64,000 nucleotides of DNA from an uncultured bacterium (GTDB lineage: Bacteria > Krumholzibacteriota > Krumholzibacteriia > LZORAL124-64-63): positions 160,001 through 224,000 of the forward strand of contig CAVSZB010000003.1 of the NCBI GenBank assembly GCA_963732385.1, in the 5' to 3' direction. This document shows, piece by piece, positions 47,367 through 64,000 of this stretch. The notes beneath the pieces were generated by a model. It was not told where the DNA came from, searched no databases, and was given only the letters and a program-made list of their open reading frames with translations. Made by a program: the position numbers and the translations under genes. Every line of letters begins with the position of its first letter. Positions within the stretch are counted from its first letter, which is position 1.

Positions 47367-48458
47367 TCAGTCGGCCACGAAGAGGTCCAGGTACGTGTAC
47401 GCGGCCGTGGGATCGTCCGTCGGCACGACAACCACCGGATGGAAGTCGCAGATGTCTTCGAGGTCGCCGGGATCCAGCGCCGTTATGGCGGCGTTGCGGG
47501 TCGTGGTGTCCCAGCTCGGATCCAGGTTGAAGGTCAGACGCCACCAGCCGACTTTGGTCACGCCGTTGACCCAGTCGAAACCGGCGGTGACCTTCGGCGC
47601 CACCGGCGGCTTGAAGTGCGCCAGATCCCAGTTGTAGCCGTAGATGACCTTGCCCGGCACGTTCAGCTCGGCCGAGTAGGCTGCGGTCGGTCCGTCCACG
47701 CCGTAGCGTTCGTAGACGCTGCTGTTGTAGAAGGTCGACGCGATGTAAGCGTCATAACCCGGCGCAAAGGTGTCCGGGATGATGCCGGTCGGCACGTTCG
47801 TGATGTCGGCCGGCCAGGCCAGCTTCTCGATCCTGAAGCGGGCGCAGCTCGAATACGCGGTCGCCGCGGTGGCCGGGATGACCGTGCCCATGGCGGGGTT
47901 GGCCGGGTCGGCGGGCGTGCCCCAGACCTCTTCGAGGCCGTCGCCGTACAGGTAGTTCATGGCATAACCGGTCAGCGGGGTGGCCTGGGCGGCCTGATAT
48001 GCCTCGAAGTCGGACTTGAACAGCACCACTTCGGTGCGGATGAGCGAATGCTGGTCCCAGGCCTGGTGGGTCAGGGCGTCGGCCCAGTCGCTGACGACCT
48101 CCACCGGCGGCGAACCGGCGCCGTTCACCCAGTCGGCCTGCCAGACGTTGACGGTCTGCTGCAGGTAATAGGTAACGTCGAGATAAGTGAAGGTCCCGGC
48201 CCAGATATCGCCGGCATCGCCCGGCAGGCCGGTGGCGATGGCCACGTTCGATCCGGTGAGGCCAATGCCTTCCGTGAAGAAGACCGGCGTGGACAGGTTG
48301 TTGCCGACCGTGGTCGTGGGCGCGGGCTTGGTCAGCGATGCGCCGTCGGCGCCGGGCGAAAGAGGATCGCTGCGTTCGCAACCGGCCAGAAACGCCATGC
48401 ACATGCAAGCGGCCACGGCCAAAGTGACCCAGCGCACTCGGTGGGAAGTGCTAGTCAT
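47367..48458 (-). CDS. Lipoprotein of unknown function, paralogue B
   Basis: Lipobox 'LAGC'; long identical stretches shared with 44760-45854. Confidence 0.8.
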   Translation of the reverse strand: MTSTSHRVRWVTLAVAACMCMAFLAGCERSDPLSPGADGASLTKPAPTTTVGNNLSTPVFFTEGIGLTGSNVAIATGLPGDAGDIWAGTFTYLDVTYYLQQTVNVWQADWVNGAGSPPVEVVSDWADALTHQAWDQHSLIRTEVVLFKSDFEAYQAAQATPLTGYAMNYLYGDGLEEVWGTPADPANPAMGTVIPATAATAYSSCARFRIEKLAWPADITNVPTGIIPDTFAPGYDAYIASTFYNSSVYERYGVDGPTAAYSAELNVPGKVIYGYNWDLAHFKPPVAPKVTAGFDWVNGVTKVGWWRLTFNLDPSWDTTTRNAAITALDPGDLEDICDFHPVVVVPTDDPTAAYTYLDLFVAD

Positions 48459-48984: not shown

Positions 48985-49779
48985 TTGAAGTGGTTGCGCC
49001 TCGCCCTGCAAACCGCTGTCATGGCTGCCGCCGTCTTCGCTGGCGCGCGGTTCGCGATGGGCCGCTCCGTGGTTTCCGTGGAGACCTGGTGTCCCTTCGG
49101 CGGCCTGGAAACGGCCTGGTCGTTCGTCACGCACAGGCGCTTCTCCTGCGCTGCGGGTGAATTGAACCTGGCGCTTTTCCTGGGGTTGCTGATTCTCACT
49201 TTGCTGGCGCGCAAGGCCTTCTGCGGCTGGGTCTGTCCGGTCGGGGCGCTTTTCGAGTGGGAGGGACGGCTGGCGCGGCGCCTGTTCCACCGGCCCGGAT
49301 TCACCGGGCTTGTGCGGGTGCCTCCCCGCGTGGACCGGTGGCTGAAGGTCGTCCTGCGGCTCGTGGTTTTGGCCGTCGTGCTGGCCGCCACCTGGAAGAC
49401 CGGGGAGCTGGTCTTCCGCGGCTACGATCCCTATTACATCCTCTTCAGCGCCAATGGGCACGACGTGCAGGCCTGGAGCTACGCCATCCTGGGCGGCCTG
49501 CTGCTGCTGGCCCTGCTGTGGCCGATGGCGTGGTGCAAATACCTCTGCCCGCTCGGGGCGGCGATCTGGCCGTTCTCAGTGGCGGGTCGGCTGAGGCTGG
49601 CAAGGGTCGCCTCCGTCTGCACCGGCTGTGGCGCCTGCGACCGGGCCTGCCCGCAGGCGCTGGACGTTTCGGGTGTGGACGAGGTGCGGTCGGGGGAATG
49701 CACCTTGTGCTTCGAGTGCACGGCTGTCTGCCCGTCTGAGGAGGCGCTCGAACTGCGCTGGGCGGGGGTGAAGCGGTGA
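48985..49779 (+). CDS. Membrane 4Fe-4S binding protein (NapH/MauN/YccM family)
   Basis: 'CPFGGLE', 'FCGWVCP', 'WCKYLCP', two CxxCxxCxxxCP motifs. Confidence 0.88.
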   Translation: MKWLRLALQTAVMAAAVFAGARFAMGRSVVSVETWCPFGGLETAWSFVTHRRFSCAAGELNLALFLGLLILTLLARKAFCGWVCPVGALFEWEGRLARRLFHRPGFTGLVRVPPRVDRWLKVVLRLVVLAVVLAATWKTGELVFRGYDPYYILFSANGHDVQAWSYAILGGLLLLALLWPMAWCKYLCPLGAAIWPFSVAGRLRLARVASVCTGCGACDRACPQALDVSGVDEVRSGECTLCFECTAVCPSEEALELRWAGVKR

Positions 49780-50183
49780 AGGCGCCGTTGTGGATCGTGC
49801 CGGCGCTGATCGTGGCGTGCACCGCGGCTGCCGCGGGGGGGGCGCGGCTGTTCGCGGCCCCGAGCGTCACCCGGGAATTCGCCGCGGCGGCGCAGGGAAC
49901 CGTGTCGCGGCGCGTTGTGTTCGTGGTGAGCGGCGTCAGGTGCGTCGACACGGCGGAGGGGGCCGCGCGGCAGCTTGCGGAAACACCGGGCGCGCTCTCC
50001 TTCGCGGCGTACGCATCGCGCGGGCGGGTGGAAGTGACCTACGACGCCGCCGTCACCGATGTCCCGGCTCTGATCGAGGCGATCGAGGGGCCCGCCTACG
50101 ACGAGGCCGCGCAGGAGTTCCGGTTCGGCGTCTACGTCGTGCGCGAAGTGGATGGCGCGCGGGTCGACCAGCCCTTTCCTTGA
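49776..50183 (+). CDS. Exported HMA-like domain protein
   Basis: N-terminal TM/signal; 'FVVSGVRCVDTA...VEVTYD...LIEAIE' ferredoxin-like HMA pattern with a single Cys. Confidence 0.6.
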   Translation: MKAPLWIVPALIVACTAAAAGGARLFAAPSVTREFAAAAQGTVSRRVVFVVSGVRCVDTAEGAARQLAETPGALSFAAYASRGRVEVTYDAAVTDVPALIEAIEGPAYDEAAQEFRFGVYVVREVDGARVDQPFP

Positions 50184-50259
50184 CAGCCTGCCGATCATTT
50201 TGACGGGCTGAAGATCATTCTGACCGCTTGCAGATCATCATCACAGGAGGCGGATTTCG

Positions 50260-50658
50260 ATGCGCATCAAGAACCTCGCCCTGATTCCCGGCATTCTCCT
50301 GCTCCTGGTCGCGACTTCGGCGCTGGCGGACGAGGCCCCCGCCAAAGACGCCGTGCCGGCCGCCGAAACCGCGATTTTCGCGGTGCCGGGCCTGACCGAC
50401 GCCGCGTTGGTCAAGGATCTGACGAAGGCGCTCGCGAAACACAAGGGGGTCGTCGCCGCGAAGGCGGACGCCGAAACCGGCAAGTTCCTCGTCACCTTCG
50501 AGCCGGGCAGGACCAGCCCCGAGGCGCTGACGCGAATCGTGGCGAAGGTGGCGCCGAAGGCGCATTTCGAAACTGTCCAGGCGGCCGATGGCAAGGCGGC
50601 CGGCGGTGATCCCTGTGGCGGGTGCCCGAGCAAGGCGACCTGCGGCGGGAAGAAGTAG
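50260..50658 (+). CDS. Secreted HMA-like protein with Cys-rich tail
   Basis: AGGAGG RBS; signal peptide; 'AIFAVPGL...LAKHKGVVAAKAD...VTFEP'; tail CGGCPSKATCG. Confidence 0.6.
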   Translation: MRIKNLALIPGILLLLVATSALADEAPAKDAVPAAETAIFAVPGLTDAALVKDLTKALAKHKGVVAAKADAETGKFLVTFEPGRTSPEALTRIVAKVAPKAHFETVQAADGKAAGGDPCGGCPSKATCGGKK

Positions 50659-50968: not shown

Positions 50969-52564
50969 GTGGTGAGGGTTTTCGTCCACAAGGAAGCGTA
51001 CTTCGATTCCGTGGTGCTGATGCTCCTCGGCCGGGAACTCAAGGGCCTGCCCGGGGTCACGGATGCCGCGGTGGCCATGGGCACCCCGATGAATCTCGCC
51101 CTGCTGACGTCCATGGGCTGCGCCGCTGGTGACCTCGCGGGGGTCGGGCCTAACGATCTCGTGATCGCTGTGGATTGCGCGGATCCTGCGCTGCTGGAGG
51201 CGGCGCTGGCGGCCGCCGAGACGGCGCTGACTCGCAGGAAAGGCTCGTCCGCGCCCGCGGGCCGGGCCGTGCGCGAGCCCTCGACGCTGGCTGGCGCGCT
51301 CGAGATGTTGCCCGGCGCCAACGTCGTGATGATCTCCATCCCCGGCGTGTACGCCGCGCGCGAGGCGCGCAAGGCGCTCGATCGCGGGCGGCATGTGATG
51401 CTCTTCTCGGACAACGTCACGCTCGATGACGAGATCGCGCTCAAGACGCACGCGCGCGAGAAGGGCCTGCTCGTGATGGGGCCCGACTGCGGTTCGGCGA
51501 TCCTGAACGGCAGGCCGCTCGGCTTCGCGAACGTCGTGCGTCGCGGACCCATTGGTGTGGTCGCCGCGTCGGGCACGGGTCTGCAGGAACTGTCCGTGCT
51601 GATCGACCGCGCGGGCTCGGGCGTCAGCCAGGCGATCGGCACCGGTGGGCGCGATCTCAGGAACGAGAGGGTCGGGGGCATCACCATGCTCATGGGCATC
51701 GAGGCGCTTGCGCGCGACGAGGCGACCAGGGTCATCGTCGTGATCTCGAAGCCGCCGGCGCCCGCGGTCGCCGCGAAGGTCGTCGCCGCGCTCGAGGCGA
51801 CGGGCAAGAGTGCGGTGGTGCATTTCATCGGCCAGGCGCGCGCGGGCGGCCCGGCGCGGTCGAACTCGCGCCTGCGACACGCGACGAACCTCGAGGAGGC
51901 CGCGGGCATGGCGGTCGCCATCGCCGGAGGGCAGAGCTACACGCCGCGCCTGTTCGCGCGGCCGGACGTCGAGATCGACGCGATCGTCGCGCGCGAGACC
52001 GCCGGTATGGCGAAGGCGCAGCGCTGGATCCGTGGCTACTTCACGGGTGGCACGCTGGCCGACGAGGCGTGGATCCTGCTGCACGCGCTCACCGGCGCGG
52101 TGTACTCGAACAACCAGACGGACCCGGCGTTCGTTCTGGCGGACCCCCGTACGTCGGTCGGGCACACGGTGGTGGATCTGGGCGACGACATGTTCACCGT
52201 CGGCCGTCCGCACCCGATGATCGACCCGGGCACGCGCACGGAGCGGATAGACGCCGAGGCCGGCGACGATTCGATCGCCGTCATGCTCGTCGACATCGTG
52301 CTCGGTTATGGTTCGCACGCCGATCCGGCGGGCGCCCTCGCGCCGTCGCTGGTCGCGGCGAAGCAGGCGGCCGCGCAACGCGGGGGGCGCCTCGCGGTGG
52401 TCGCCTCGATCACCGGCACGAACGGCGACCACCAGGGCTACGCGCGGCAGAAGGCGGTGCTCGAGGCGGCCGACGTCGTGGTAATGCCCTCGAACTTCCA
52501 GGCGTCGATGCTGGCGGTGCGCATCCTGGAGAAGGTTCTGGCGAACGCGGCCGGTGCGCGATGA
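50969..52564 (+). CDS. fdrA: Acyl-CoA synthetase FdrA (succinyl-CoA ligase alpha-like; E. coli FdrA/AllF homologue)
   Basis: GGAGG RBS + GTG; 'YFDSVVLM', 'MGTPMN', 'FSDNV', 'MGPDCG', 'ASGTG', 'ISKPP', 'GRPHPMIDP'. Confidence 0.9.
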   Translation: MVRVFVHKEAYFDSVVLMLLGRELKGLPGVTDAAVAMGTPMNLALLTSMGCAAGDLAGVGPNDLVIAVDCADPALLEAALAAAETALTRRKGSSAPAGRAVREPSTLAGALEMLPGANVVMISIPGVYAAREARKALDRGRHVMLFSDNVTLDDEIALKTHAREKGLLVMGPDCGSAILNGRPLGFANVVRRGPIGVVAASGTGLQELSVLIDRAGSGVSQAIGTGGRDLRNERVGGITMLMGIEALARDEATRVIVVISKPPAPAVAAKVVAALEATGKSAVVHFIGQARAGGPARSNSRLRHATNLEEAAGMAVAIAGGQSYTPRLFARPDVEIDAIVARETAGMAKAQRWIRGYFTGGTLADEAWILLHALTGAVYSNNQTDPAFVLADPRTSVGHTVVDLGDDMFTVGRPHPMIDPGTRTERIDAEAGDDSIAVMLVDIVLGYGSHADPAGALAPSLVAAKQAAAQRGGRLAVVASITGTNGDHQGYARQKAVLEAADVVVMPSNFQASMLAVRILEKVLANAAGAR

Positions 52565-53994
52565 GCGGGCCCGACGTCCAGGCGGTCACCGATTTGTTTG
52601 CGTCCGAACTGGCGGTCATCAACCTCGGTCTGGAGGCCTTCGCGGAGAACCTGCGGGCGTGCGACACGCCCGTGGTGCAGGTGCGCTGGAAGCCGCCGGC
52701 AGGCGGTGACGCGCGCATGATCGAGGCTCTTGACCGCATCGCGAGCAACCCGCGCGTGGATGTCGATGCCGCCAACGCGCTCGCCGCGGAGCGCATCATG
52801 AAGAGCAGGCCGATGCTCATGGGTGTCGGTGTCGCGGGCGAGGTCGTGCCCGGGATGAAGCCGAACATGGTGCTTCACTCCGGTCCGCCGGTGACGTGGC
52901 AGAGGATGTGCGGCCCCCTGAAGGGCGCGGTCATCGGCGGCCTGCTCTACGAGGGCCTGGCGAATACGCGCGCCCAGGCCGAGGACCTCGCCGCTTCGGG
53001 CGCCATTGTATTCGAGCCCTGTCATCACCACGACGCGGTGGGCCCCATGGCGGGGGTGATGACGTCGCGCATGCCGGTGTGGATCCTCGGGAACGCCACG
53101 TACGGCAACCGCGCCTACTGCACGTTCAACGAGGGGCTTGGCAAGGTCCTGCGGTACGGTGCGTTTTCCGGCGAAGTGCTCGAGCGGTTGCGCTGGCTGG
53201 AGACCGATCTCGCACCAGTTCTGAGCAAGGCGCTGGAACTCCACGGGCCGATCGACATGCGCAGCCTTATCGCGCAGGCGCTGCAGATGGGGGATGAAGG
53301 GCATAACCGCAATCGCGCCGGCACTTCGCTGTTGATCCGCGAGCTCGCGTCCTTCCTGGTGCAGGTGGACGAGCCGAAGGAGCGTATTGCGAAGGTCCTC
53401 TTATTCATGCATGAGAACGACCATTTCTTCCTCAACCTCACGATGCCTTCCGCCAAGTGCGCGGTGGACGCGGCGCGGGGCATCGAGGGCAGCTCCGTCA
53501 TCACGACCATGGCGCGCAACGGCACCGACTTCGGCATTCGCCTCTCCGGCCTGGGGGAGCGCTGGTTCACCGGTCCGGCGGGGATGGTCGACGGGCTCTA
53601 CCTGCCGGGCTTCGGTCCGCAGGACGCCGCGCCGGACATCGGCGACTCGGTGATCACCGAGACCGCGGGCATCGGCGGATTCGCGATGGCCGCTGCGCCC
53701 GCGATCGTGAAGTTCATCGGCGGCAAACCGGCGGATGCGATCGACTTCACGCTGAGCATGTACGAGATCACAGTAGCGGAAAACAACGCCTATCAGATTC
53801 CGGTTCTCGATTTCCGCGGCACGCCCACGGGCATCGACGTCCGCAAGGTCGTCGAATCGGGGATCCTCCCGGTAATCAATACGGGAATCGCCCATCGAGA
53901 GCCGGGGATCGGCATGGTGGGCGCGGGGCTCGTCAAGCCCCCCAGGAACTGTTTCGAGGACGCGTTGCTGGCGTTCGCGGCGGCAATCGCCTGA
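52561..53994 (+). CDS. ylbE: YlbE/DUF1116 family protein (AllG-like) with an N-terminal FdrA-tail-like segment
   Basis: 'VINLGL...WKPPAGGD', 'LHSGPP', 'PCHHHDAVGPMAG', 'NEGLGKVLRYGA', 'MGDEGHNRN', 'DIGDSVITE', 'INTGIAH'. Confidence 0.88.
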   Translation: MSGPDVQAVTDLFASELAVINLGLEAFAENLRACDTPVVQVRWKPPAGGDARMIEALDRIASNPRVDVDAANALAAERIMKSRPMLMGVGVAGEVVPGMKPNMVLHSGPPVTWQRMCGPLKGAVIGGLLYEGLANTRAQAEDLAASGAIVFEPCHHHDAVGPMAGVMTSRMPVWILGNATYGNRAYCTFNEGLGKVLRYGAFSGEVLERLRWLETDLAPVLSKALELHGPIDMRSLIAQALQMGDEGHNRNRAGTSLLIRELASFLVQVDEPKERIAKVLLFMHENDHFFLNLTMPSAKCAVDAARGIEGSSVITTMARNGTDFGIRLSGLGERWFTGPAGMVDGLYLPGFGPQDAAPDIGDSVITETAGIGGFAMAAAPAIVKFIGGKPADAIDFTLSMYEITVAENNAYQIPVLDFRGTPTGIDVRKVVESGILPVINTGIAHREPGIGMVGAGLVKPPRNCFEDALLAFAAAIA

Positions 53995-54022
53995 ACGGGA
54001 AACACGGTCCAGGAGACGCACC

Positions 54023-54901
54023 ATGAAGATGATCGATTTGACCATTCCGCTCGGCATCGGCACCCCGCCGTGGCCGACGTACACGCCGCTGCAGGTCCAG
54101 TACTTCAAGCGCCTCGCTCCCCACGGCGCCAATGGACAGGTGGTGACGCACTCGAACCATGTCGGCACCCATCTCGACGGCGAGATCCACTTCCACTCGC
54201 CGGGCAAGGACATCGCAAGTCTCGACATGGATTTCCTGGTCCACGATGGCGCGATCGTCGATCTCTCGGACGTCTGCGGCGACTATGACGTGTACACGTC
54301 GAAGATGGTCGAGGAGCGCGTCGAGGTCTTGCCGGGCGACATCCTTCTCATCCACACCGGTTTCCATCACTACGGCTGGGATCAGCCGACCGCGGACGAG
54401 GTCCGCTACATGGTCAGGCACCCGGGTCCGGATCGGGAGTTCGCCGTCTGGGCCAAGAAGAAGAAGCTGCGCTGGATCGGCGTGGACTGCGGCAGCGCCG
54501 ACCATCCGATGAACACCAAGATCCGCGAATGGATGCCTGTCCAGGCCAGGGAGTGCGACGAGCACTTTCGCGCCAGATACAAGCGGGGCCTGGAAGAGGT
54601 GTTCACTCCGGACAAGTACCAGTTGATGCACCTGGAGATGTTCCACAAGGGCCTGATCCATGCCGAGTGCGTCGGCGGCGACATCGACCTGCTGCTGAAC
54701 CAGAGGGCGCTCATCGGCTGCTTCCCGTGGCGGTTCGTCGACGGCGAGTCGAGCATCGCCCGCATCGTCGCCATGGTTGAAGACGCACGCTACGCCAGGC
54801 TCATGGCCAAAAAGAAGAAAGCCAGGCTCACGAAGTTCGGCGACGTCGCGGGCGCCCGGAATCCGTGGCTCCACGACGAGGCGAAGAAGAAACGGAAGTA
54901 A
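54023..54901 (+). CDS. Cyclase family metal-dependent hydrolase (kynurenine formamidase/isatin hydrolase-like)
   Basis: 'IDLTIP', HxGTHxDxxxH motif 'HVGTHLDGEIH', 'GDILLIHTG', 'IGVD', 'IHAE'. Confidence 0.88.
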   Translation: MKMIDLTIPLGIGTPPWPTYTPLQVQYFKRLAPHGANGQVVTHSNHVGTHLDGEIHFHSPGKDIASLDMDFLVHDGAIVDLSDVCGDYDVYTSKMVEERVEVLPGDILLIHTGFHHYGWDQPTADEVRYMVRHPGPDREFAVWAKKKKLRWIGVDCGSADHPMNTKIREWMPVQARECDEHFRARYKRGLEEVFTPDKYQLMHLEMFHKGLIHAECVGGDIDLLLNQRALIGCFPWRFVDGESSIARIVAMVEDARYARLMAKKKKARLTKFGDVAGARNPWLHDEAKKKRK

Positions 54902-54974
54902 GGCGGGCCCGCGAACGCCCGGAAACCTGCCGGCCGACAAGCGCCGGCGTCATTGACCGGAATGGAGAAGCACG

Positions 54975-55667
54975 ATGGCGATCGACCAGCTGGAAATGAA
55001 ACTCCGGCCCCCGGCAGCGAAGCTGGCGCCGTACCCCGCGAAGCTGATCACTCTCGCCTCAGGGGAGAAGATGGTCGTGCGCGAGGCGCGTCGCGAAGAC
55101 ACCGGCGCCCTGCTGGGCACCGTGTACCCGTTGCTTGCGGTAGCGAAGGACTACTACGACATCGTCGCCGCCCGCATGTACAGCGAGATTCTCGGCTGGT
55201 TTCGCTATCGGGTCGCCAACGAATTCATCATCGTCGGAGCCATCGATGGCATCATCGCGGGCATTGTCACGAGCCGTCACGTCAAAGAAGGGCTCGGCAT
55301 GAGCCTGCACACGCTTACCATCAAGCGCGGCCTGCGCGTCGGCGCCCAGCTCTTCGCGGCCAAGATGGAGCATCATATCGAATATCTGGACGAGAACGAG
55401 GTGCACATCGTCGCGGAGAGCCCGATCGGCTTCAAGCGCTGGATGATCGAGTACGAACTCGAGGACCGTTCCGCCCAGTACCCGGAACTGCGCCACGAAC
55501 TCGGCGGCGTGCCCACGTTCACGCTCACGCGCAAGCTGTGGGAAGCGGTCAGGCCGGCGAAGTGCACGGGCACGCGGCCCGTGCCGGCCGAGCTTCTGAA
55601 GACTGCGGAAAAGCTCATCATGCCCGATGAGTACGTGCAGCTTCCCGGCTGGAAGCGGGGCGACTGA
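54975..55667 (+). CDS. Uncharacterised protein, probable GNAT-fold acyltransferase
   Basis: 'ITLASGEKMVVREARRED', 'IVGAIDGIIAG', 'KRGLRVGAQL' (motif A-like); translationally coupled to the thiolase. Confidence 0.55.
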   Translation: MAIDQLEMKLRPPAAKLAPYPAKLITLASGEKMVVREARREDTGALLGTVYPLLAVAKDYYDIVAARMYSEILGWFRYRVANEFIIVGAIDGIIAGIVTSRHVKEGLGMSLHTLTIKRGLRVGAQLFAAKMEHHIEYLDENEVHIVAESPIGFKRWMIEYELEDRSAQYPELRHELGGVPTFTLTRKLWEAVRPAKCTGTRPVPAELLKTAEKLIMPDEYVQLPGWKRGD

Positions 55668-56866
55668 TGGCGCCTCGTATCGGAATCGTCGGCATCGGAC
55701 ATTGCCGGTTCGGCAATTCGAGCGAGTACGATCTCGTGGACGTGATCGCGTATTCGGCGAACGACGCCTTCCGCGACGCGGGCGGTCTTCACTTGCGCAA
55801 GCAGGTCGACCAGGTCCTCGTCGGCAACATGGCGGCGGGCCTGTTCAACCACCAGACCTCCGTGGCCTCCGCGCTGGTCAGCCGGATGGATATGGAACCG
55901 TGTCCGGCCGAACTTGTCGAGAACGGTCCAGCCTCGGGTGCGAGCGCGATACGTTTGGGGTACATGGCGATCGCCTCGGGCATGGCCGACGTCGTCCTGG
56001 TGGCGGCGGGTGAGGTCATGCGGACGGTGTCGGGCTGGGAGGCCACGAACATCGTGGCCACCATGGCGCACACCGAGGCCGAGTACAACATGGGTCTTAC
56101 GCTGCCTGGTTTCGCCGGGATGTTCACGCGGTTGTACATGCAGAAGTACGGCATGACCGAGCGCGATCTCGCCCTGGTGGCGGTGAAGGACCACGCGAAC
56201 GGCGCGAAGAACATCTATGCGCATGTCCAGATCCCCGTCACGATCGAGGCGATCGCCGATGGCGAGAACGCAAGCGTGGTGAACAACTACGTCGCCGAGC
56301 CGCTGCGCATGTATTCGACCTGCCCGATCAGCGACGGCTCCGCGGCGGTGATCCTGGTCAACATGGACTCGCCCAAGGTGGATCTCTTCAGGAACAAGCC
56401 CATCCGGATCGCGGGGATCGCTTCAGCGACCGATACCCACTGCGTACACAATCGCAAGGATCCGCTCGTACTCGACGCCGTCCGCTTGTCGGCGGAAAAA
56501 GCGTATGCCATGGCGGGCGTGACGCCGCAGGACATCTCTCTGGCCGAGCTGCACGATGCGTTCGTGATCTTCGAGCTTCTCAACAGCGAGGAAGTCGGCT
56601 TCTTCGAGCGCGGCAAGTCGTTTCTCGGCGTGCGCAACGGCGAGACCGAAATCGGCGGCCGGATCCCGATCAACACCTCGGGCGGCCTCAAGGCCAAAGG
56701 GCACCCCGTGGGCGCCACCGGCGTATCTCAGGTCGTGGAACTCGTCCGGCAGCTGCGCGGCGAGGCCGAAGAAGGGCGCCAGGTCAAGGACCCAAAATTC
56801 GGCCTGGCGGTCAATTTCGGCGGTTTTGGCAACAATGTCGTAACCACGATCCTGGCGAAGGACTAG
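55667..56866 (+). CDS. Thiolase-superfamily protein (SCP2/archaeal type) lacking the canonical nucleophilic Cys
   Basis: 'VENGPASG' where ExACASG is expected; 'CPISDGSAA', 'AELHDAF', 'INTSGGLKAKGHPVGATG'. Confidence 0.88.
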   Translation: MAPRIGIVGIGHCRFGNSSEYDLVDVIAYSANDAFRDAGGLHLRKQVDQVLVGNMAAGLFNHQTSVASALVSRMDMEPCPAELVENGPASGASAIRLGYMAIASGMADVVLVAAGEVMRTVSGWEATNIVATMAHTEAEYNMGLTLPGFAGMFTRLYMQKYGMTERDLALVAVKDHANGAKNIYAHVQIPVTIEAIADGENASVVNNYVAEPLRMYSTCPISDGSAAVILVNMDSPKVDLFRNKPIRIAGIASATDTHCVHNRKDPLVLDAVRLSAEKAYAMAGVTPQDISLAELHDAFVIFELLNSEEVGFFERGKSFLGVRNGETEIGGRIPINTSGGLKAKGHPVGATGVSQVVELVRQLRGEAEEGRQVKDPKFGLAVNFGGFGNNVVTTILAKD

Positions 56867-56876
56867 GGAGCCACTG

Positions 56877-57260
56877 ATGATCGATTTCAGCATTTACGGC
56901 GAGCAGACGCCCCACATCAGCGGCTACCGGTGCCTGAAGTGCGGCTCGATCTATTACCCTGCGCCCATGGTGTGCAGGAAGTGCGACGCCCCCCGCGACC
57001 CCTCCACGGGGCGCCATTGGGAGCCCTTCGATCTCGAAGGACCGTGCACCCTGCTTACCTGGACACGGGTGTGGAATCTGCCCGAGGGCTTCAACGTGAA
57101 GTTCCTGATGTTCGCCATGGTGGAGTTCCCGAACGGCCTGCGCGCTTCAGGGCGTCTCGAATGCGAAGGAGACCCGGTTATCGGGGCGAAGCTCGATGCG
57201 AGGGTGATCGAGGCTGACGAACGCCCCGGCCCGGCGGTGAAGGTGTTCGTTTTCAGTTGA
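56877..57260 (+). CDS. Zn-ribbon/OB-fold (DUF35) thiolase partner protein
   Basis: 'RCLKCG...PMVCRKC', 'LLTWT', 'PEGF', 'VEFPNG'. Confidence 0.85.
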   Translation: MIDFSIYGEQTPHISGYRCLKCGSIYYPAPMVCRKCDAPRDPSTGRHWEPFDLEGPCTLLTWTRVWNLPEGFNVKFLMFAMVEFPNGLRASGRLECEGDPVIGAKLDARVIEADERPGPAVKVFVFS

Positions 57261-57291
57261 GACGGGATTCCCGTGAAGGAAGCCCTGATCC

Positions 57292-58224
57292 GTGCATCAC
57301 GTGTCCCTCATAACAACGCGGCGGACCGCGGTCGCGATCGGCTCCGAAGTCCCGGTCGGGGGCTTCGATTTTCGCGTCCACAGCCTGTTCGGCCCGGCGA
57401 TGAATCTGGCGGTTCCGGGACGCCGCGGCCTCATCACGCTCGTCGGTGCAGACGCCGACGATTACCCTCAGGGCATCCGGCTCGCGACGCACGAACGCTT
57501 CGATGCGTGGCCTGTGTCCGCCGGAACGCGCGGTCATCGCGAGGGCGACACGCTGGTGTTCGAAGGCCAGGACGGCGATGATAACCCCGTTGTCGATCTC
57601 TCGGTCGCCGTCAGGGCGACGCGCCGGGCGCCGCCGCGCATCGACCCGGGCGCCAAGACGTCACGCGAAACCTGGGTGGTCTGCGCCCGCCATCTCGACG
57701 CGCTGCAGGAGGAGAAGCGGACGGACCTGCGGCTGGCGGCGCTCTGCGGCGGATCATCCCCGCCTACGCGCCTGGGTGCGCGGCTGGCCGGGGAGGCGCG
57801 CAGGCTGGCGAGCGGTTTGCGCGCGAAGAACGCGGACCTGGCTGGCGGCGCCGCGGCCGGCATGATGGGTCTTGGCGCGGGGCTGACCCCCGCGGGAGAC
57901 GATTTCCTGTGCGGGCTCCTCGCCGCGCTCTGGTGCGCGAGCGGAGAGGGCAGCCAGGAGCGCGGTTTCATGGTCGAGTGGGGCGGGACTCTCGCGGCCC
58001 GGCTGGGGGCGACGACCGTGATCAGCGCGACCTGTCTGGAGTGCGCGATCGCCGGATGTTTCTCCGGAGCGGTGTCCGCGCTCGCCGCCGCCTTCGCCGG
58101 CGATCATGCGCACGAAGGCGCGCGCGCGGCACTGGACGACCTGTGCGCGCATGGTCACAGTTCAGGGATGGATACCGCGACCGGATTCCTGTTCGGACTC
58201 CGGCTCCGGGCCACCGAGGAATGA
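57292..58224 (+). CDS. ylbF: DUF2877/YlbF family protein (AllH-like)
   Basis: 'VHSLF', 'GLGAGLTPAGDDFLCG', 'TTVIS', 'GHSSGMD'. Confidence 0.82.
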   Translation: MHHVSLITTRRTAVAIGSEVPVGGFDFRVHSLFGPAMNLAVPGRRGLITLVGADADDYPQGIRLATHERFDAWPVSAGTRGHREGDTLVFEGQDGDDNPVVDLSVAVRATRRAPPRIDPGAKTSRETWVVCARHLDALQEEKRTDLRLAALCGGSSPPTRLGARLAGEARRLASGLRAKNADLAGGAAAGMMGLGAGLTPAGDDFLCGLLAALWCASGEGSQERGFMVEWGGTLAARLGATTVISATCLECAIAGCFSGAVSALAAAFAGDHAHEGARAALDDLCAHGHSSGMDTATGFLFGLRLRATEE

Positions 58225-58230
58225 GGCGAT

Positions 58231-59046
58231 ATGCTCCACAGCTTTGAATACCGGGCGCCACGGCAGCGCGCCGAGCTCCTCGGGCTCCTCGCCGACCACG
58301 GCGGGGCGGCCAGGCTGCTGGCCGGAGGCACCGATCTGCTCGTCAACATCCGCGCCGGTTCCGTTTCGCCGGCGCTGGTGCTCGATGTCAAGCGCGTGGC
58401 GGGCTATGGCGAGATGTCGTGGAGCGAGGCGGAAGGTCTCGTGATCCGGCCCGCGACGACGATCAACGACATCCTGCGCGATTCGCGAATCCATGAGGAC
58501 TATCCGCTGCTCGTTTCGTGCGCGCGCGACCTCGCGTCCTACCAGATACGCAATCGCGCGACGGTGATCGGCAACATAGTCAACGCGTCGCCGTGCGCCG
58601 ATATGGCGCCGGCCCTGCTGTGCCTGGACGCGTACGCGGTGATCGCCTCGATGAAGGGTGAGCGCGTGGTTCCGCTTCGCGAGTTCTTCACCGGCGTCCG
58701 GCGCACCGTGCTCGCGACCGGTGAAATCATCGACCGCGTCGTGGTGCCCGCCGCGGCCGCCGGCGCTCGCGGCGCATACCGGAAGCTCAAGCGCATCAAT
58801 GGCCACGACCTCGGCATTGTCGGAGTGGCCGTCCACAAGCAGTCCGGAGCAATGCGGCTCGCCATCAGCTCGGCGGCGCCAACGCCCGTGCTCGTGGACG
58901 GGCTCGCGGAGTCCGCGCCCGCCGATACGGTCGTCGCGGCCGTCCGCGAGGCGATCAGCCCCATCAGCGACCTGCGCTGCACGAAGGAGTATCGCGAACA
59001 CATGGTTGAGGTCTTCGTTCGTCGGCTGTTGCTGGAGGTGAAGTAA
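58231..59046 (+). CDS. Xanthine dehydrogenase-family Mo hydroxylase, FAD-binding subunit
   Basis: 'LAGGTDL', 'QIRNRATVIGNIVNASPCAD', 'PISDLRCTKEYR'. Confidence 0.93.
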   Translation: MLHSFEYRAPRQRAELLGLLADHGGAARLLAGGTDLLVNIRAGSVSPALVLDVKRVAGYGEMSWSEAEGLVIRPATTINDILRDSRIHEDYPLLVSCARDLASYQIRNRATVIGNIVNASPCADMAPALLCLDAYAVIASMKGERVVPLREFFTGVRRTVLATGEIIDRVVVPAAAAGARGAYRKLKRINGHDLGIVGVAVHKQSGAMRLAISSAAPTPVLVDGLAESAPADTVVAAVREAISPISDLRCTKEYREHMVEVFVRRLLLEVK

Positions 59047-59531
59047 TGAAGATCTCGGTCACGGTCAACGGACAGGCTTACGAGCGCGAGATAGTGGGAC
59101 ACCGCACGCTGCTGCATTTCCTGCGTGAGGATGTCGGGCTGACGGGCGCCAGGGAGGGCTGCGGCGCCGGCGAGTGTGGCGCCTGCACCGTACTGCTCGA
59201 CGGGCTCGCCGTGAACGCATGCATGATCCTCGCCGTCGAAGCCGACGGGCGCAGGATCGAGACGATCGAAGGCGAGGCGAAGGACGGGCGGCTCTCGGCG
59301 ATCCAGGAGGCGTTCAGCCGCAATCACGCCGTGCAGTGCGGCTTCTGCACCGGCGGCATGATCATGTCTGTACGCGAACTGCTGGCGCGCAACCCGAAAC
59401 CCACGATTGCCGAGATCAAGGCGGGCATCGAGGGCAACTTCTGCCGTTGCACCGGTTACCAGCAGATCATCGAGGCCGTGCTTGACGCGTCCGGTCAGCT
59501 CACGGAAAAGGGCGGGGTGAAGTATGCATGA
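59046..59531 (+). CDS. Xanthine dehydrogenase-family Mo hydroxylase, 2Fe-2S subunit
   Basis: 'GCGAGECGACTV', 'QCGFCTGG', 'GNFCRCTGY'. Confidence 0.95.
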   Translation: MKISVTVNGQAYEREIVGHRTLLHFLREDVGLTGAREGCGAGECGACTVLLDGLAVNACMILAVEADGRRIETIEGEAKDGRLSAIQEAFSRNHAVQCGFCTGGMIMSVRELLARNPKPTIAEIKAGIEGNFCRCTGYQQIIEAVLDASGQLTEKGGVKYA

Positions 59532-61935
59532 GAACGCCGACCCCGGGACGCTGAAGTACGTCGGCAAAAGCAGCGATCGCTCGGAGGTCACCGAGAAGCT
59601 GACCGGCGAGGCCGTCTATACCAGCGACCTGTCGTTTCCCGGCATGCTGCACGCCCAGATCAAGCAGAGCCCGCACGCACGGGCGCGCATCTGCAGCATC
59701 GACACCTCGCAGGCCGAGCGTCTGCCTGGAGTGCGCGCCGTACTCACGGGCGCAGAACTGGACTACCGGCTCGGTCTTTACATTGTCGACAAGCACATCC
59801 TTGCCCGCGGTGAAGTGCGCCACTTCGGCGAAGCCGTCGCCGCGGTCGCCGCGGACACGCTTGCCATCGCCCGGCGCGCGGCCGACCTGATCGAGGTGGA
59901 ATACGCCGTGCTGCCCGCCGTCCTGAACCACATGGACGCACTGAAGGAAGGCGCCCCGCTGGTTCATCCGGACCTTGGCCGGTACGACCACGTCGCCGCG
60001 GCCTTCACGCCGGCTCCGGGCACCAACATCGCGAACCTGACCAGGCTGCGGAAGGGTGACGTCGAGCAGGGCTTTGCCGAATCCGCGTGGCTGATCGAGC
60101 GCGAGTACACGAATCCCTCGGTGCAGCACGTGCCGATGGAGACACACGTCGCGATCGCCGAATGGAAGGCGGGCGACAACATCAACATCTGGTCCAGCGC
60201 GCAGTCGCCGTTCACCGTGCGCAATCTGTTCTGCCATACGTTCGGGCTGCCGCTCAACAAGGTGCGGGTGATGGTGCCGCACGTCGGCGGCGGATTCGGA
60301 GGCAAGGCCGGCATCCATCTCGAGCCCCTCGTGGCCTGCCTCTCGCGCAAGGCGGGCGGCCGGCCGGTCAAATTCCAGGCCACGCGCGAAGAGGAGTTCA
60401 GCCTGCTGCCGTGCCGCAGCGCGCTCACCTACCGGATCAAGACCGGCGTCGCCGCTGACGGCAAAATCATCGCCCAGAAGATGACCATGTATTGGGACGC
60501 CGGCGCCTACGCCGACTACGCGGTGAATGTCACGCGCGCGTCGGGCTACTCCGCTGCGGGTCCCTACGAGATTCCCAACGCCTGGGTGGACGCCTACACG
60601 CTTTACACGAACAAGCCGTACGGCACGGCGTATCGCGGCTTCGGGCACGTTGAGTTCTTCTGGGGGGTCGAGCGCCACATGGAGCTCATCGCCGATGTTA
60701 TCGGCATGGACCCGCTTGAGTTCCGCCGCAGGAACGCGCTCGTGCCCGGTTCGAAAACGTTGACTGGCGAGACGATCACCAGCAACACCGGCGACGTCAC
60801 CCGGTGCATCGACGCGGTTGCCGAGTCGATCGGTTACGGCCGGCTCGATGCTGACGAATCGGCCCGCGAGCAGCGCACCGGCCGCAAGATCGGCAAGGGC
60901 CTCGCGGCATTGCACAAGGCGCCGGCCATGCCGCCGTTCACCGCCTCGGCCATTGTCATCAAGATGAACTCCGACGGCACCGTGGTCGTCAACCTCGGCC
61001 TGACCGAAATCGGCCAGGGCTCCACCACGGCGATGGCGCAGATCGTGGCCGAGCGGCTGAAATTCGATATGGCGAAAGTAAAGATCTGCGTAGACAAGGA
61101 TACCGACCGCGATCCGTACGACTGGCAGACCGTCGCCTCGAAGGGGCTGATCCTGAGTGGAAACGCGGCGATCCTGGCGTGTGATGACCTGCTGGGAAAC
61201 GCGTACAGCGTCGCCGCCCAGGTGCTGCGGGCCCAGGTGCTGGACCTCGATCATGACTCCGAGAAGGTGTTCGTGAAGCACCATCCCGATCACTCGGTGA
61301 CCTTCGCGGCCCTTGCGGTCGGCTATGCGTTTCCCAACGGCAATGCGATCGGCGGTCCGCTCATCGGCGTGGGACGATACGTGGCGCAGGGGCTTTCGAA
61401 CCTCGACAAGGAGACCGGACAGGGCAACCCCGCCCTCGACTGGACCTATGGGGCGCACGGCGTGATCGTGGAGGTGGATCCCGTGAGCGGCGAGTACCAC
61501 GTCCTCAAGATTGCGTCGGCGTTCGACGTCGGCAAGGTGATCAACCCGGAGATCGTGCGCGGCCAGTGCATCGGCGGCATGGTGCAGGGCCTCGGGACCG
61601 CGATCTGCGAAGGCTACATCTACGACGAGCAGGGGCACCTCCTGAACCCGTCGTTTACGGACAACAAGATCCCCACCGCGCGCGATATCCCCGATGTGAT
61701 CGAAAGCATTGCGGTGGAGACGCCGCAGCTCGACGGACCATACGGCGCCCGCGGCGTTGGCGAGCATCCGATGATTTCCGTGGCTCCCGCGCTCGGCAAT
61801 GCCATCAGGCATGCCGTCGGCGCCGAGCTGACGCACATGCCGATTCGGGCCGAGGACGTGTGGCGCGCGATGGGAAACAGGGAATCAATCGATAACTGGA
61901 TCACGAAGACGCCGAACAGGTCCTGCAAAGCGTGA
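59524..61935 (+). CDS. Xanthine dehydrogenase-family Mo hydroxylase, molybdopterin-binding subunit (substrate unknown)
   Basis: 'SPHARARI', 'VGGGFGGK', 'AYRGFG', 'EIGQG', 'GQCIGGMVQGLG', 'GARGVGE' (catalytic Glu). Confidence 0.93.
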   Translation: MHENADPGTLKYVGKSSDRSEVTEKLTGEAVYTSDLSFPGMLHAQIKQSPHARARICSIDTSQAERLPGVRAVLTGAELDYRLGLYIVDKHILARGEVRHFGEAVAAVAADTLAIARRAADLIEVEYAVLPAVLNHMDALKEGAPLVHPDLGRYDHVAAAFTPAPGTNIANLTRLRKGDVEQGFAESAWLIEREYTNPSVQHVPMETHVAIAEWKAGDNINIWSSAQSPFTVRNLFCHTFGLPLNKVRVMVPHVGGGFGGKAGIHLEPLVACLSRKAGGRPVKFQATREEEFSLLPCRSALTYRIKTGVAADGKIIAQKMTMYWDAGAYADYAVNVTRASGYSAAGPYEIPNAWVDAYTLYTNKPYGTAYRGFGHVEFFWGVERHMELIADVIGMDPLEFRRRNALVPGSKTLTGETITSNTGDVTRCIDAVAESIGYGRLDADESAREQRTGRKIGKGLAALHKAPAMPPFTASAIVIKMNSDGTVVVNLGLTEIGQGSTTAMAQIVAERLKFDMAKVKICVDKDTDRDPYDWQTVASKGLILSGNAAILACDDLLGNAYSVAAQVLRAQVLDLDHDSEKVFVKHHPDHSVTFAALAVGYAFPNGNAIGGPLIGVGRYVAQGLSNLDKETGQGNPALDWTYGAHGVIVEVDPVSGEYHVLKIASAFDVGKVINPEIVRGQCIGGMVQGLGTAICEGYIYDEQGHLLNPSFTDNKIPTARDIPDVIESIAVETPQLDGPYGARGVGEHPMISVAPALGNAIRHAVGAELTHMPIRAEDVWRAMGNRESIDNWITKTPNRSCKA

Positions 61936-62371: not shown

Positions 62372-62488
62372 TGTCGATTGCAAATGCTCGTCCAGAACGT
62401 GTAGCAGCTGCCGATAGCATAACGGGAACAGGCGGGCGCTCTTATTCCGCGGGCGTTGATGAGCCTGGCACAGAGGGGAGTCGGGAGC

Positions 62489-62983
62489 ATGAGCAGTCAG
62501 GTTGAAGCTGTCCTGGCGAGTCACCCCGGGGCGGGGCGAGACAAGCTGATCCCGATCCTGCAGGAGGTGCAGGAGGCCGAGGGCTACCTGTCGGAGCCGG
62601 CGATCGTGGCGATAGGCCGGCACCTGAAGCTGCCGGCCAGCAAGATCTACGGGGTGGCCACCTTCTACAACCAGTTCCGCTTCGCGCCAAAGGGGCGCTT
62701 CCACGTCATGATCTGCCGCGGCACCGCCTGTCACGTGAAGGGCTCGGCCAAGGTGCTCGATACGGTGACCCGGTCGCTGCGCCTGGAGCCGGGGCAGACC
62801 TCCCGCGACGGGCTGTTCAGCCTCGAGGTGGTGGCGTGCATGGGCGCCTGCGCCCTGTCGCCGGCGATCGCCATCAACGGGCAGTTCTTTCCGAAGGTGT
62901 CGCCCACGAAGATCGTCAAGCTGCTGGACCAGTGCCGGCAGGAAGCGGCGGCGAAGACCCCGGATGCGGTGACCAACGCGTGA
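62489..62983 (+). CDS. NuoE/HydC-like 2Fe-2S subunit
   Basis: 'LIPILQEVQEAEGYL', 'GVATFYNQF', 'CRGTACHVKG', 'ACMGACAL'. Confidence 0.92.
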   Translation: MSSQVEAVLASHPGAGRDKLIPILQEVQEAEGYLSEPAIVAIGRHLKLPASKIYGVATFYNQFRFAPKGRFHVMICRGTACHVKGSAKVLDTVTRSLRLEPGQTSRDGLFSLEVVACMGACALSPAIAINGQFFPKVSPTKIVKLLDQCRQEAAAKTPDAVTNA

Positions 62984-63043
62984 CGAAGTAACCCCCCGCG
63001 CCGGCGGTCGGGCCGCGGGCGGCGGGGCCGAGGAGAGTACGTC

Positions 63044-64000
63044 ATGATGCGATTCGCCAATGAACGGCAGCTGGAAACCTACCGAGAGTCCCTCAAGGCC
63101 GCACACGACCCGACCAGAACGCGCATCTGCGTGTGCGGCGGCACGGGGTGCAACGCGCAGGGGTCGATCGATCTGGTGCGCGAGCTGCGGGCGGCGGTCG
63201 GGAAGTACGGGCTGGCCGACAGGGTCGAGGTCAAGGCCACCGGGTGCCACGGCTTCTGCGAGAAGGGGCCGGTAGTGGTGGTGCGGCCCGAGAACATCTT
63301 CTACGTGCTCGTGAAGCCGGACGACGCCGACGAACTGGTGCGGGTGACCTGCGTCGAGAAAGGCGTGGTTGAGCGGCTGCAGTACATCGACCCGACCTCC
63401 GGGCAGCGCATCTTGCGTGAGCAGGACGTGCCATTCTACAAGCAGCAGATGCGCGTCATTCTGGGCGACAACGGGCACCTCGACCCCACCTCCATCGACG
63501 ACTACCTGCTCAACGGCGGCTACATGGCGCTGGGGAAGGCCCTCACGAACCTGACGCCGGAAGACGTCATCGACGAAGTGAAGCGCGCCGGGCTGCGCGG
63601 GCGCGGGGGAGCCGGCTTCCCCACCGCCCGCAAGTGGGAGCTGTGCCGCCAGCAGCCGGGCGACGAGAAATACATCATCTGCAACGCCGATGAGGGCGAT
63701 CCGGGCGCCTACATGAACCGCTCGGAGCTGGAAGGCAATCCGCACCTCATGATCGAGGGCATGATGATCGGGGCCTACGCCATCGGGGCGAGCAAGGCCT
63801 ACATCTACTGCCGCGCGGAGTATCCCCTGGCGATCGAGCAGGTGGAACGGGCGATCGCGCAGGCCCGGGAATGCGGGCTGCTCGGGGAGAACATCCTCGA
63901 CAGCGGCTTCAGCCTCGACATGGTCATCAAGATGGGCGCCGGCGCCTTCGTGTGCGGCGAGGAGACCGCCCTCATGGCCAGCATCGAGGGCAAGCGCGGC
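63044..64000 (+). CDS. NuoF/HydB-like FMN/NADH subunit with N-terminal thioredoxin-like 2Fe-2S domain, truncated by the window end
   Basis: AGGAG RBS; translated by hand: 'ICVCGGTGC', 'TGCHGFCEKGP', 'GLRGRGGAGFPT', 'ICNADEGDPGAYMNRS', 'GAGAFVCGEETAL'. Confidence 0.9.
   Translation, partial: MMRFANERQLETYRESLKAAHDPTRTRICVCGGTGCNAQGSIDLVRELRAAVGKYGLADRVEVKATGCHGFCEKGPVVVVRPENIFYVLVKPDDADELVRVTCVEKGVVERLQYIDPTSGQRILREQDVPFYKQQMRVILGDNGHLDPTSIDDYLLNGGYMALGKALTNLTPEDVIDEVKRAGLRGRGGAGFPTARKWELCRQQPGDEKYIICNADEGDPGAYMNRSELEGNPHLMIEGMMIGAYAIGASKAYIYCRAEYPLAIEQVERAIAQARECGLLGENILDSGFSLDMVIKMGAGAFVCGEETALMASIEGKRG

Follow-up and report, generated by a model that had tools for sequence, protein, structure and literature searches.

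A ten-gene operon of an uncultured Krumholzibacteriota bacterium, probably for oxidative pyrimidine breakdown via barbiturate

What does a bacterium degrade with an operon that joins the subunits of an oxamate carbamoyltransferase-like enzyme to a molybdenum (Mo) hydroxylase, a cyclase-family hydrolase, and a thiolase-like protein? This question is raised by ten genes at 50969..61935 of a 64,000-nucleotide stretch (the window) of contig CAVSZB010000003.1 in assembly GCA_963732385.1, from an uncultured member of the phylum Krumholzibacteriota. A first-pass annotation of this DNA had proposed hydroxylation, ring opening, ureide cleavage, and coenzyme A (CoA) chemistry of a purine-, pyrimidine-, or pyridine-type substrate. 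By analogy with related systems, the operon probably serves an oxygen-independent, energy-conserving form of oxidative pyrimidine (uracil/thymine) breakdown via barbiturate. It belongs neither to the barbiturase/ureidomalonase pathway nor to the allantoin pathway, and most likely operates in the manner of oxidative pyrimidine catabolism.

In the proposed pathway, the Mo enzyme would hydroxylate uracil (or thymine) to barbiturate (or 5-methylbarbiturate), and the cyclase would open barbiturate to ureidomalonate in barbiturase's stead. FdrA, YlbE, and YlbF would then phosphorolyse ureidomalonate, with malonamate and carbamoyl phosphate as products; from the latter, carbamate kinase would make adenosine triphosphate (ATP), CO2, and NH3. 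Finally, a GNAT-fold protein, a thiolase-fold protein without catalytic cysteines, and a DUF35 protein would work through CoA esters to release CO2 and NH3 from malonamate and leave an acetyl unit. The first three steps are proposed with reasonable confidence, while the exact chemistry of the fourth is tentative. The earlier order of reactions is supported, with a likely phosphorolysis in place of CoA activation of the ureide. Its list of substrates narrows to pyrimidine via barbiturate, purine and pyridine being disfavoured by permeases and neighbouring genes.

The ten open reading frames (ORFs) all lie intact on the + strand, with a G+C content at third codon positions of 0.81-0.90. The intergenic gaps are, in gene order, -4, +28, +73, -1, +10, +31, +6, -1, and -8 nucleotides; four junctions overlap and none is wider than +73, as expected of the co-oriented, tightly coupled genes first described. 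Pfam and NCBIfam back nine of the ten labels that they had been given, thiolase-like and DUF35 included, and the exception, the fourth (GNAT-like) ORF, is confirmed by a fold model. Promoter and terminator scans are at chance, with 1 hit against 1.2 expected and 4 against 5.8 expected, respectively.

A scan of GTDB genomes with an alignment of the GNAT protein confirmed 511 loci, the closest 80 of which were fetched and are the basis of all counts of GTDB loci given here. All ten genes are present in 31/80 (29 of the 44 loci that are long enough on both sides), and 27/80, from several phyla, keep the window's gene order, so the ten-gene arrangement is not chance. Record labels of these loci include Spirochaetota, Ca. 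Eisenbacteria, Acidobacteriota, Anaeromyxobacter, and Caldiserica, and a cultured Sphaerochaeta (L063) carries the operon. In twelve spirochaete loci, a single ORF of ~1000 amino acids encodes FdrA and YlbE as a fusion (L035, L044-L047, L051, L054, L057-L059, L063, and L065). A second scan, of metagenomes, took as its centre a clade whose GNAT protein is 50-59% identical and yielded 80 mostly short contigs; 6/80 (5 of 10 long contigs) hold all ten genes, each time in another order. Since the GNAT protein is matched in only 9/208 genomes of the window's own phylum, one match being marginal, the operon is patchy and probably mobile. A GNAT search of plasmids gave no match. The commonest extra genes near the operon in the GTDB loci encode a GntR regulator (34/80), an NCS2 permease (29-30/80), and carbamate kinase (11/80). 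For ylbF, a profile search (43/80) replaces a tblastn count (21/80) that missed divergent copies.

Where the operon is split, it falls into three blocks: fdrA-ylbE-cyclase, GNAT-thiolase-DUF35, and Mo-FAD-FeS with ylbF. GNAT-thiolase-DUF35 is thus a unit separable from the cyclase, which travels with fdrA-ylbE. The four genes nested between ylbE and ylbF do co-occur with fdrA, ylbE, and ylbF elsewhere, so the failure to co-occur that would have refuted the first-pass annotation is not seen; they form two modules rather than one set. Among 29 hand-picked genomes with GNAT-thiolase-DUF35, 11 of them close kin, the same 25 hold YlbF, the Mo subunit at at least 42% identity, and carbamate kinase, even with the operon split; YlbE is present in 17 of the 22 tested. 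One of the four exceptions is a 1.4 Mb bin. In the other three (L062, L067, L082), GNAT-thiolase-DUF35 is preceded by genes for an ActP-like monocarboxylate importer and a nitrilase-family protein, and searches of these genomes gave no YlbE, YlbF, carbamate kinase, or Mo orthologue. The importer and nitrilase-family gene suggest that the substrate of this block is probably a small acid.

The Mo hydroxylase is a three-subunit enzyme of the Xdh family, and a Mo hydroxylase is the first enzyme of the oxidative pyrimidine pathway. It consists of a flavin adenine dinucleotide (FAD) subunit (58231..59046; PF00941, PF03450), a 2Fe-2S subunit (59046..59531; PF00111, PF01799), and a molybdopterin subunit (59524..61935) that is predicted to be a uracil/thymine dehydrogenase. 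The molybdopterin subunit is below every NCBIfam cut-off, XdhA being the best model. XdhAB of Rhodobacter capsulatus, nicotinate dehydrogenase, and 4-hydroxybenzoyl-CoA reductase share its three-subunit fold, the catalytic Glu747, and the motifs that bind the Mo cofactor, and Gln227 and Arg371 are also kept. Unlike XdhAB, it has Ala262 at the position of Glu232, the xanthine-binding residue of Rhodobacter xanthine dehydrogenase, and it reaches no NCBIfam cut-off. The Arg310 position of the Rhodobacter enzyme is Ala339 here, in register, with Arg338 one residue before. PDB 2W55 differs from 1JRO at the Glu232 site. As judged from the sequence, the missing glutamate argues against purines, without establishing uracil. 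The subunit forms its own clade in a tree against few references and has no close characterised relative among the references compared; its uracil/thymine role is inferred from context.

The cyclase (54023..54901; PF04199) is a metal-dependent amidohydrolase and the predicted barbiturate ring opener, an analogue of barbiturase. Its motif HVGTHLDGEIH fits HxGTHxDxxxH; HxGTHxD, H56, and H213 are conserved in 60/60 aligned sequences and E215 in 59/60. It adjoins fdrA-ylbE even where the operon splits. With AtzD, TrzD, and the barbiturase of Embleya as queries, tblastn detected no homologue of these enzymes in this genome or at any GNAT-thiolase-DUF35 locus, with positives at L216, L220, and L221; the tblastn search took the place of PF09663 searches of 5 and 208 genomes, which were empty but whose controls were silent too. 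The cyclase is the predicted opener because no barbiturase homologue was found and because it holds the ring opener's place. That place is illustrated by the triazine plasmid pSR8 of Aminobacter (L220 7058-20870), where fdrA-ylbE-trzD-arcC occurs with ylbF: a TrzD-type ring opener stands right after ylbE, in the cyclase's position, and is followed by carbamate kinase. This cluster in turn hints at a branch of cyanuric acid breakdown, so far undescribed, that runs by biuret phosphorolysis. Two other candidates were rejected: a CN hydrolase as substitute for the cyclase (split genomes carry both), and haloarchaeal cyclase loci as further cases of this system (Mo subunits only 28-29% identical).

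FdrA (50969..52564; NF004760, 517 bits against a cut-off of 433), YlbE (52561..53994; DUF1116, PF06545, E 5e-100), and YlbF (57292..58224; DUF2877, PF11392, E 3e-25) are the predicted subunits of an N-acylurea phosphorylase/transcarbamoylase. The start codon of ylbF is uncertain by ~16 codons, close relatives being annotated ~16 residues shorter. FdrA is 43% identical to YahF and 41% to AllF of E. coli, and YlbE is 50% identical to YahG over 462 residues. The two are split as YahF and YahG are, such that the 55-residue segment that ends AllF starts YlbE here. The uncharacterised yahEFG-yahI of E. coli and the triazine-plasmid cluster fdrA-ylbE-trzD-arcC-ylbF have the same subunit architecture, the latter also with a ring opener beside ylbE and carbamate kinase; unlike this operon, both are without Mo enzyme, cyclase, and GNAT-thiolase-DUF35 in the regions fetched.

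Chemically, ureidomalonate is the one-carbon-longer homologue of oxalurate. All three subunits of the E. coli oxamate carbamoyltransferase AllFGH have homologues here, at 41%, 48%, and 32% identity over the aligned parts. AllFGH acts with the carbamate kinase AllK, and sets of this operon's kind likewise often carry carbamate kinase; unlike AllFGH, the operon has a YahF/YahG-type split, no allantoin genes, and ureidomalonate as predicted substrate. In PMC11326118, AllFGH is described as reversibly converting oxalurate and phosphate to oxamate and carbamoyl phosphate. By this analogy, FdrA-YlbE-YlbF likely cleave the ureide by phosphorolysis, with carbamoyl phosphate passing to carbamate kinase, rather than by CoA activation. 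Carbamate kinase lies within 10 kilobases of the operon in 11/80 related loci, in 8 of them between ylbF and the FAD gene. The ten ORFs include neither allantoin genes nor carbamate kinase, and a genome search gave no match to AllC, AllD, AllE, or AllA; the earlier statement to this effect holds for the operon, though not for carbamate kinase in the genome (C4:112274-113209) or in those 11 loci.

The GNAT-fold protein (54975..55667) belongs to a highly conserved unnamed family with 2556 homologues and has no Pfam or NCBIfam match. An AlphaFold model from a 32-row alignment has a mean predicted local distance difference test (pLDDT) of 91.9, compared with only 33.7 for a single-sequence fold, and adopts the GNAT fold (VIA Z 13.7, root-mean-square deviation 2.8, 160 residues aligned; Foldseek E 4e-6). 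Its 50 best structural matches are N-acyltransferase-type GNATs, and a protein atlas groups the ORF with clusters named N-acetyltransferase. No malonyl-CoA decarboxylase or CurA entry is among the structure matches listed, though such an activity may still be present. S110, H112, S149, and H174 are conserved and are candidates for a counterpart of the Ser/Thr-His dyad of malonyl-CoA decarboxylase and CurA-type GNATs. Fused forms of the protein were sought among longer proteins and none was found, which is weak evidence.

The thiolase-fold protein (55667..56866) is of the SCP2/archaeal type and lacks both catalytic cysteines. Pro88 occupies the position of the nucleophilic Cys in 77/77 aligned sequences, the window's included, and HDAF replaces HDCF in 76 of these (HDPF in 1); the C-terminus reads NFGG where a CxG would carry the acid/base Cys, and His296 and His346 are kept. 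The genome's second, canonical thiolase, beside an HMG-CoA synthase-like gene, has Cys at both sites. Classical thiolysis is impossible with both cysteines missing; a Cys-less thiolase fold with two histidines could stabilise an acyl-CoA enolate. Its DUF35/ChsH2 zinc-ribbon partner (56877..57260; PF12172, zf-ChsH2, E 2.5e-6) has its four Zn cysteines in 75/75 aligned sequences. The pairing of an SCP2-type thiolase fold with DUF35 is also found in the archaeal thiolase-HMGS-DUF35 complex (6ESQ), the Ltp2-ChsH2 and Sal-Shy aldolases, BbsAB, and PhlABC. Unlike in those complexes, Pro stands here at the nucleophile, Ala at the second Cys, and no aldolase motif is present: LHDAF replaces YDHF or YDCY, given as the Ltp2/Sal retro-aldolase motifs in PMC12329534. 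The third partner is a GNAT, in contrast to the HMG-CoA synthase of the archaeal complex.

For the fourth step, the preferred scheme is that the GNAT would reverse an N-acyl transfer (malonamate + CoA to malonyl-CoA + NH3) and the thiolase-fold protein would pull the reaction by decarboxylating malonyl-CoA to acetyl-CoA. Amide thiolysis by the GNAT is uphill by ~17-20 kJ/mol and malonyl-CoA decarboxylation yields ~-15 kJ/mol, so the thiolysis is feasible in principle if pulled by decarboxylation and product dilution. A thiolase-like trypanosome protein is reported to decarboxylate malonyl-CoA weakly (PMC12329534). The reverse assignment, with the GNAT as decarboxylase, is possible, malonyl-CoA decarboxylase being itself a GNAT (PMC3701320). 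It is conceivable, if doubtful, that the whole is a fifth kind of pyrimidine catabolism, a fermentative one gaining ATP twice per ring: barbiturase of the cyclase fold and ureidomalonate phosphorylase would yield carbamoyl phosphate, and a new GNAT/thiolase/DUF35 complex would then make acetyl-CoA, CO2, and NH3 straight from malonamate and CoA without ATP input. The last step of such a scheme would, again speculatively, be reverse N-acyl transfer with decarboxylation or a C-C lyase reaction releasing cyanate or carbamate.

Evidence for a pyrimidine substrate comes from permeases and neighbouring genes. NCS2 permeases occur in 30/80 GTDB loci, with UraA as best E. coli match in 22, RutG in 5, XanP in 2, and UacT in 1. 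The UraA/RutG-like signature E-N is present in 28/28 readable permeases and the Q-N of XanP, XanQ, and UacT in none. Several distinct NCS2 lineages have been recruited to the operon, with one permease above the uracil-permease cut-off, and in a distant clade 9/9 permeases are best matched by UraA-type queries. Genes for PreT/PreA, dihydropyrimidinase, M20 carbamoylase, class III aminotransferase, and methylmalonate-semialdehyde dehydrogenase lie between DUF35 and ylbF in G063, and cytosine-deaminase-like genes occur in 2/80 metagenome loci. Quick trees of YlbE and NCS2, with open backbones, were not used for orthology.

The strongest parallel is a locus of Embleya (L221; NZ_CP108785.1 2146000-2178000), which has a RutG-like permease, a Mo enzyme, ylbF-fdrA-ylbE, a CN hydrolase, and a cytosine deaminase; an operon at this locus further holds a CoA-transferase, an AccD/A carboxyltransferase fusion, carbamate kinase, and a barbiturase that scores 594 bits to PDB 5HWE compared with 324 for the best cyanuric acid hydrolase. 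By analogy, it appears to encode the same route with other parts in place of the cyclase and GNAT-thiolase-DUF35. In both the Embleya and the Aminobacter parallels, FdrA/YlbE/YlbF would take over from an enzyme that turns a cyclic imide into an acylurea by ring opening. An orthologue of the Embleya CN hydrolase was not found in five of five full-operon genomes (best 27-36% identity, compared with 47-48% among orthologues); these genomes each hold other CN hydrolases, and four hold amidase-signature proteins. Malonamate is favoured as the substrate of GNAT-thiolase-DUF35 because this module alone is left for the job with which Embleya's amidase, CoA-transferase, and carboxyltransferase appear to finish the route, and because the amidase orthologue was not found. 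The Embleya Mo enzyme carries the NCBIfam label aerobic CO dehydrogenase (NF040766, over cut-off), a label that may hide a uracil dehydrogenase.

Rhodococcus erythropolis has an oxidative pathway from pyrimidine through barbiturate by means of barbiturase and ureidomalonase (PMC3758960). The predicted path from uracil through barbiturate to ureidomalonate is the same here. Unlike that pathway, the operon has a cyclase-family hydrolase and no AtzD/barbiturase gene, a predicted phosphorolysis rather than hydrolysis to urea and malonate, and a distribution mostly in anaerobe-type lineages.

Several observations weigh against the pyrimidine reading. The genome counts include many close relatives, and the Embleya locus and G063 are single loci. 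The Mo subunit shares 31% identity with its counterpart at the barbiturase-bearing Embleya locus and 30-36% with the other references, and its best PDB matches are 4-hydroxybenzoyl-CoA reductase over the full length and nicotinate dehydrogenase in the active-site region. Relatives of the cyclase (~50% identical in haloarchaea, 43% in Rhodococcus) have unrelated Mo enzymes or aromatic dioxygenases as neighbours. Most NCS2 permeases are just 32-52% identical to UraA or RutG and were left unresolved by the tree; moreover, the E-N signature alone is not decisive because three permeases that best match purine carriers carry it too. At L184, GNAT-thiolase-DUF35 stands beside purine-type deaminase/hydantoinase-like genes. 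The carbamate kinase of this genome was rejected as pathway evidence, the baseline being 123 of 128 genomes of the phylum.

The host genome, which is 95.8% complete, adds two such points. A search of it gave no NCS2 permease (the search control was positive in 12 of 14), though a nucleoside transporter together with a pyrimidine-nucleoside phosphorylase could supply bases. Nor did searches find MoaC, MoeA, or an over-cut-off MoaA in it or in a 62%-complete congener; two operon-bearing members of the family have MoaA, MoaC, and MoeA. MobA/MocA-like and XdhC-like genes and a second intact Xdh-family enzyme are kept. The gap in cofactor genes could be accounted for by a gap in the assembly, by scavenging of the cofactor, or by a first step that is idle, so step 1 may be idle or use scavenged cofactor here.

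A fairly unlikely alternative keeps the pyrimidine route and ends it differently: an amidase, either the cyclase or an unlinked enzyme, would make malonate from malonamate, and GNAT-thiolase-DUF35 would be a new malonate decarboxylase, with one subunit as CoA-transferase and the GNAT or thiolase-fold protein as malonyl-CoA decarboxylase. It would suit the GNAT folds of malonyl-CoA decarboxylase and the CurA loading domain (PMC3701320), the CaiB-type CoA-transferases near GNAT-thiolase-DUF35 in L127 and L140, and the best PDB matches of the cyclase, the kynurenine formamidases, which hydrolyse linear amides. A CN hydrolase beside GNAT-thiolase-DUF35 in 14/80 GTDB and 2/80 metagenome loci, and another in 3/80, fits malonate as the block's substrate equally well, and this too counts against the malonamate step. 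On splitting, however, the cyclase stays with fdrA-ylbE and the genomes hold both cyclase and CN hydrolase; if the cyclase were the amidase, another enzyme would have to open barbiturate, and no barbiturase was found to do so. The N-acyltransferase-type matches of the GNAT model also speak against it. It is distinctly unlikely that hydroxylation and ring opening give the N-acylurea or amide from some other or modified N-heterocycle, be it hydantoin, a substituted pyrimidine, or a pyridine (nicotinate, for example). The Mo subunit's lack of a close characterised relative, the best match of its active-site region to nicotinate dehydrogenase, the moderate similarity of the permeases to UraA, and the occurrence of FdrA/YlbE/YlbF with triazine and other ring openers would agree with such a substrate; the repeated recruitment of UraA/RutG-type permeases, the inserted reductive pyrimidine genes, the cytosine-deaminase neighbours, and the barbiturase parallel would not, and by established chemistry a pyridine ring yields no ureide for a step that forms carbamoyl phosphate.

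A purine pathway, from xanthine through urate to oxalurate cleaved by FdrA/YlbE/YlbF, with GNAT-thiolase-DUF35 handling oxamate, is very improbable. Oxalurate is the only proven AllFGH substrate, XdhA is the best, below-cut-off model of the Mo subunit, and L184 has its purine-type neighbours; against these stand Ala262 for Glu232, a possible change at Arg310, the pyrimidine-type permeases, and the Yah-type FdrA/YlbE split, and one hydrolase is no substitute for the allantoin enzymes. The genome moreover has a separate purine/urate set of YgeW, YgeY, SsnA, HyuA, YgfK, and a second Xdh/XdhA (G000:C8:244711-268316 and C7:362219-366639). Least credible of all is a reversed route, for salvage or biosynthesis, in which the Mo enzyme reduces barbiturate to uracil. 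It would draw on the reductase among the Mo subunit's PDB matches and on the reversibility of the AllFGH reaction, and it is opposed by the importers, carbamate kinase, the GntR regulator, the catabolic neighbours, and the genome's own aspartate carbamoyltransferase-like and dihydroorotase-like genes.

Directly upstream of the operon, on its strand (window 48985-50658), lie genes for two proteins with heavy-metal-associated domains and for a membrane protein of 4Fe-4S type, a set common only to congener L003 among three close loci checked. Further upstream, on the - strand, is a pair of paralogous lipoprotein-like ORFs (44760-45854, 364 residues; 47367-48458, 363 residues), the second of which had no Pfam match when scanned. 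Downstream, from 62456-64000 on to G000:C3:231593, are genes for NuoE-like, NuoF-like, and [FeFe]-hydrogenase-like subunits, a response regulator, and a sensory-hydrogenase-like protein; the [FeFe]-hydrogenase-like subunit matches two of three H-cluster motifs. The NuoE, NuoF, and hydrogenase-like genes may make up an electron-bifurcating sink, as would suit an anaerobic metabolism. The hydrogenase-like set is also downstream in L003, and not in L005 or L007. Three genes of L003, fdrA and those for the FAD and Mo subunits, are fragmented, possibly by sequencing errors.

The open-access literature, with subscription papers outside its scope, gave no description of the gene set or of ureidomalonate phosphorolysis, in keeping with the first-pass annotation, which knew of no characterised pathway with these genes. 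The enzymes of the operon are probably new, and GNAT-thiolase-DUF35 may be new chemistry. The oxidative breakdown of pyrimidines is regarded as rare, with AtzD/barbiturase homologues in 3% of 6423 genomes (PMC3758960). If the pyrimidine reading is true, this breakdown would extend to hundreds of species (511 GTDB loci with the GNAT marker), by way of enzymes that barbiturase searches miss. The YahF/YahG/YahE-type enzyme would gain a substrate, the AllFGH transcarbamoylase family would act on several acylureas, and the thiolase fold would gain a new reaction.

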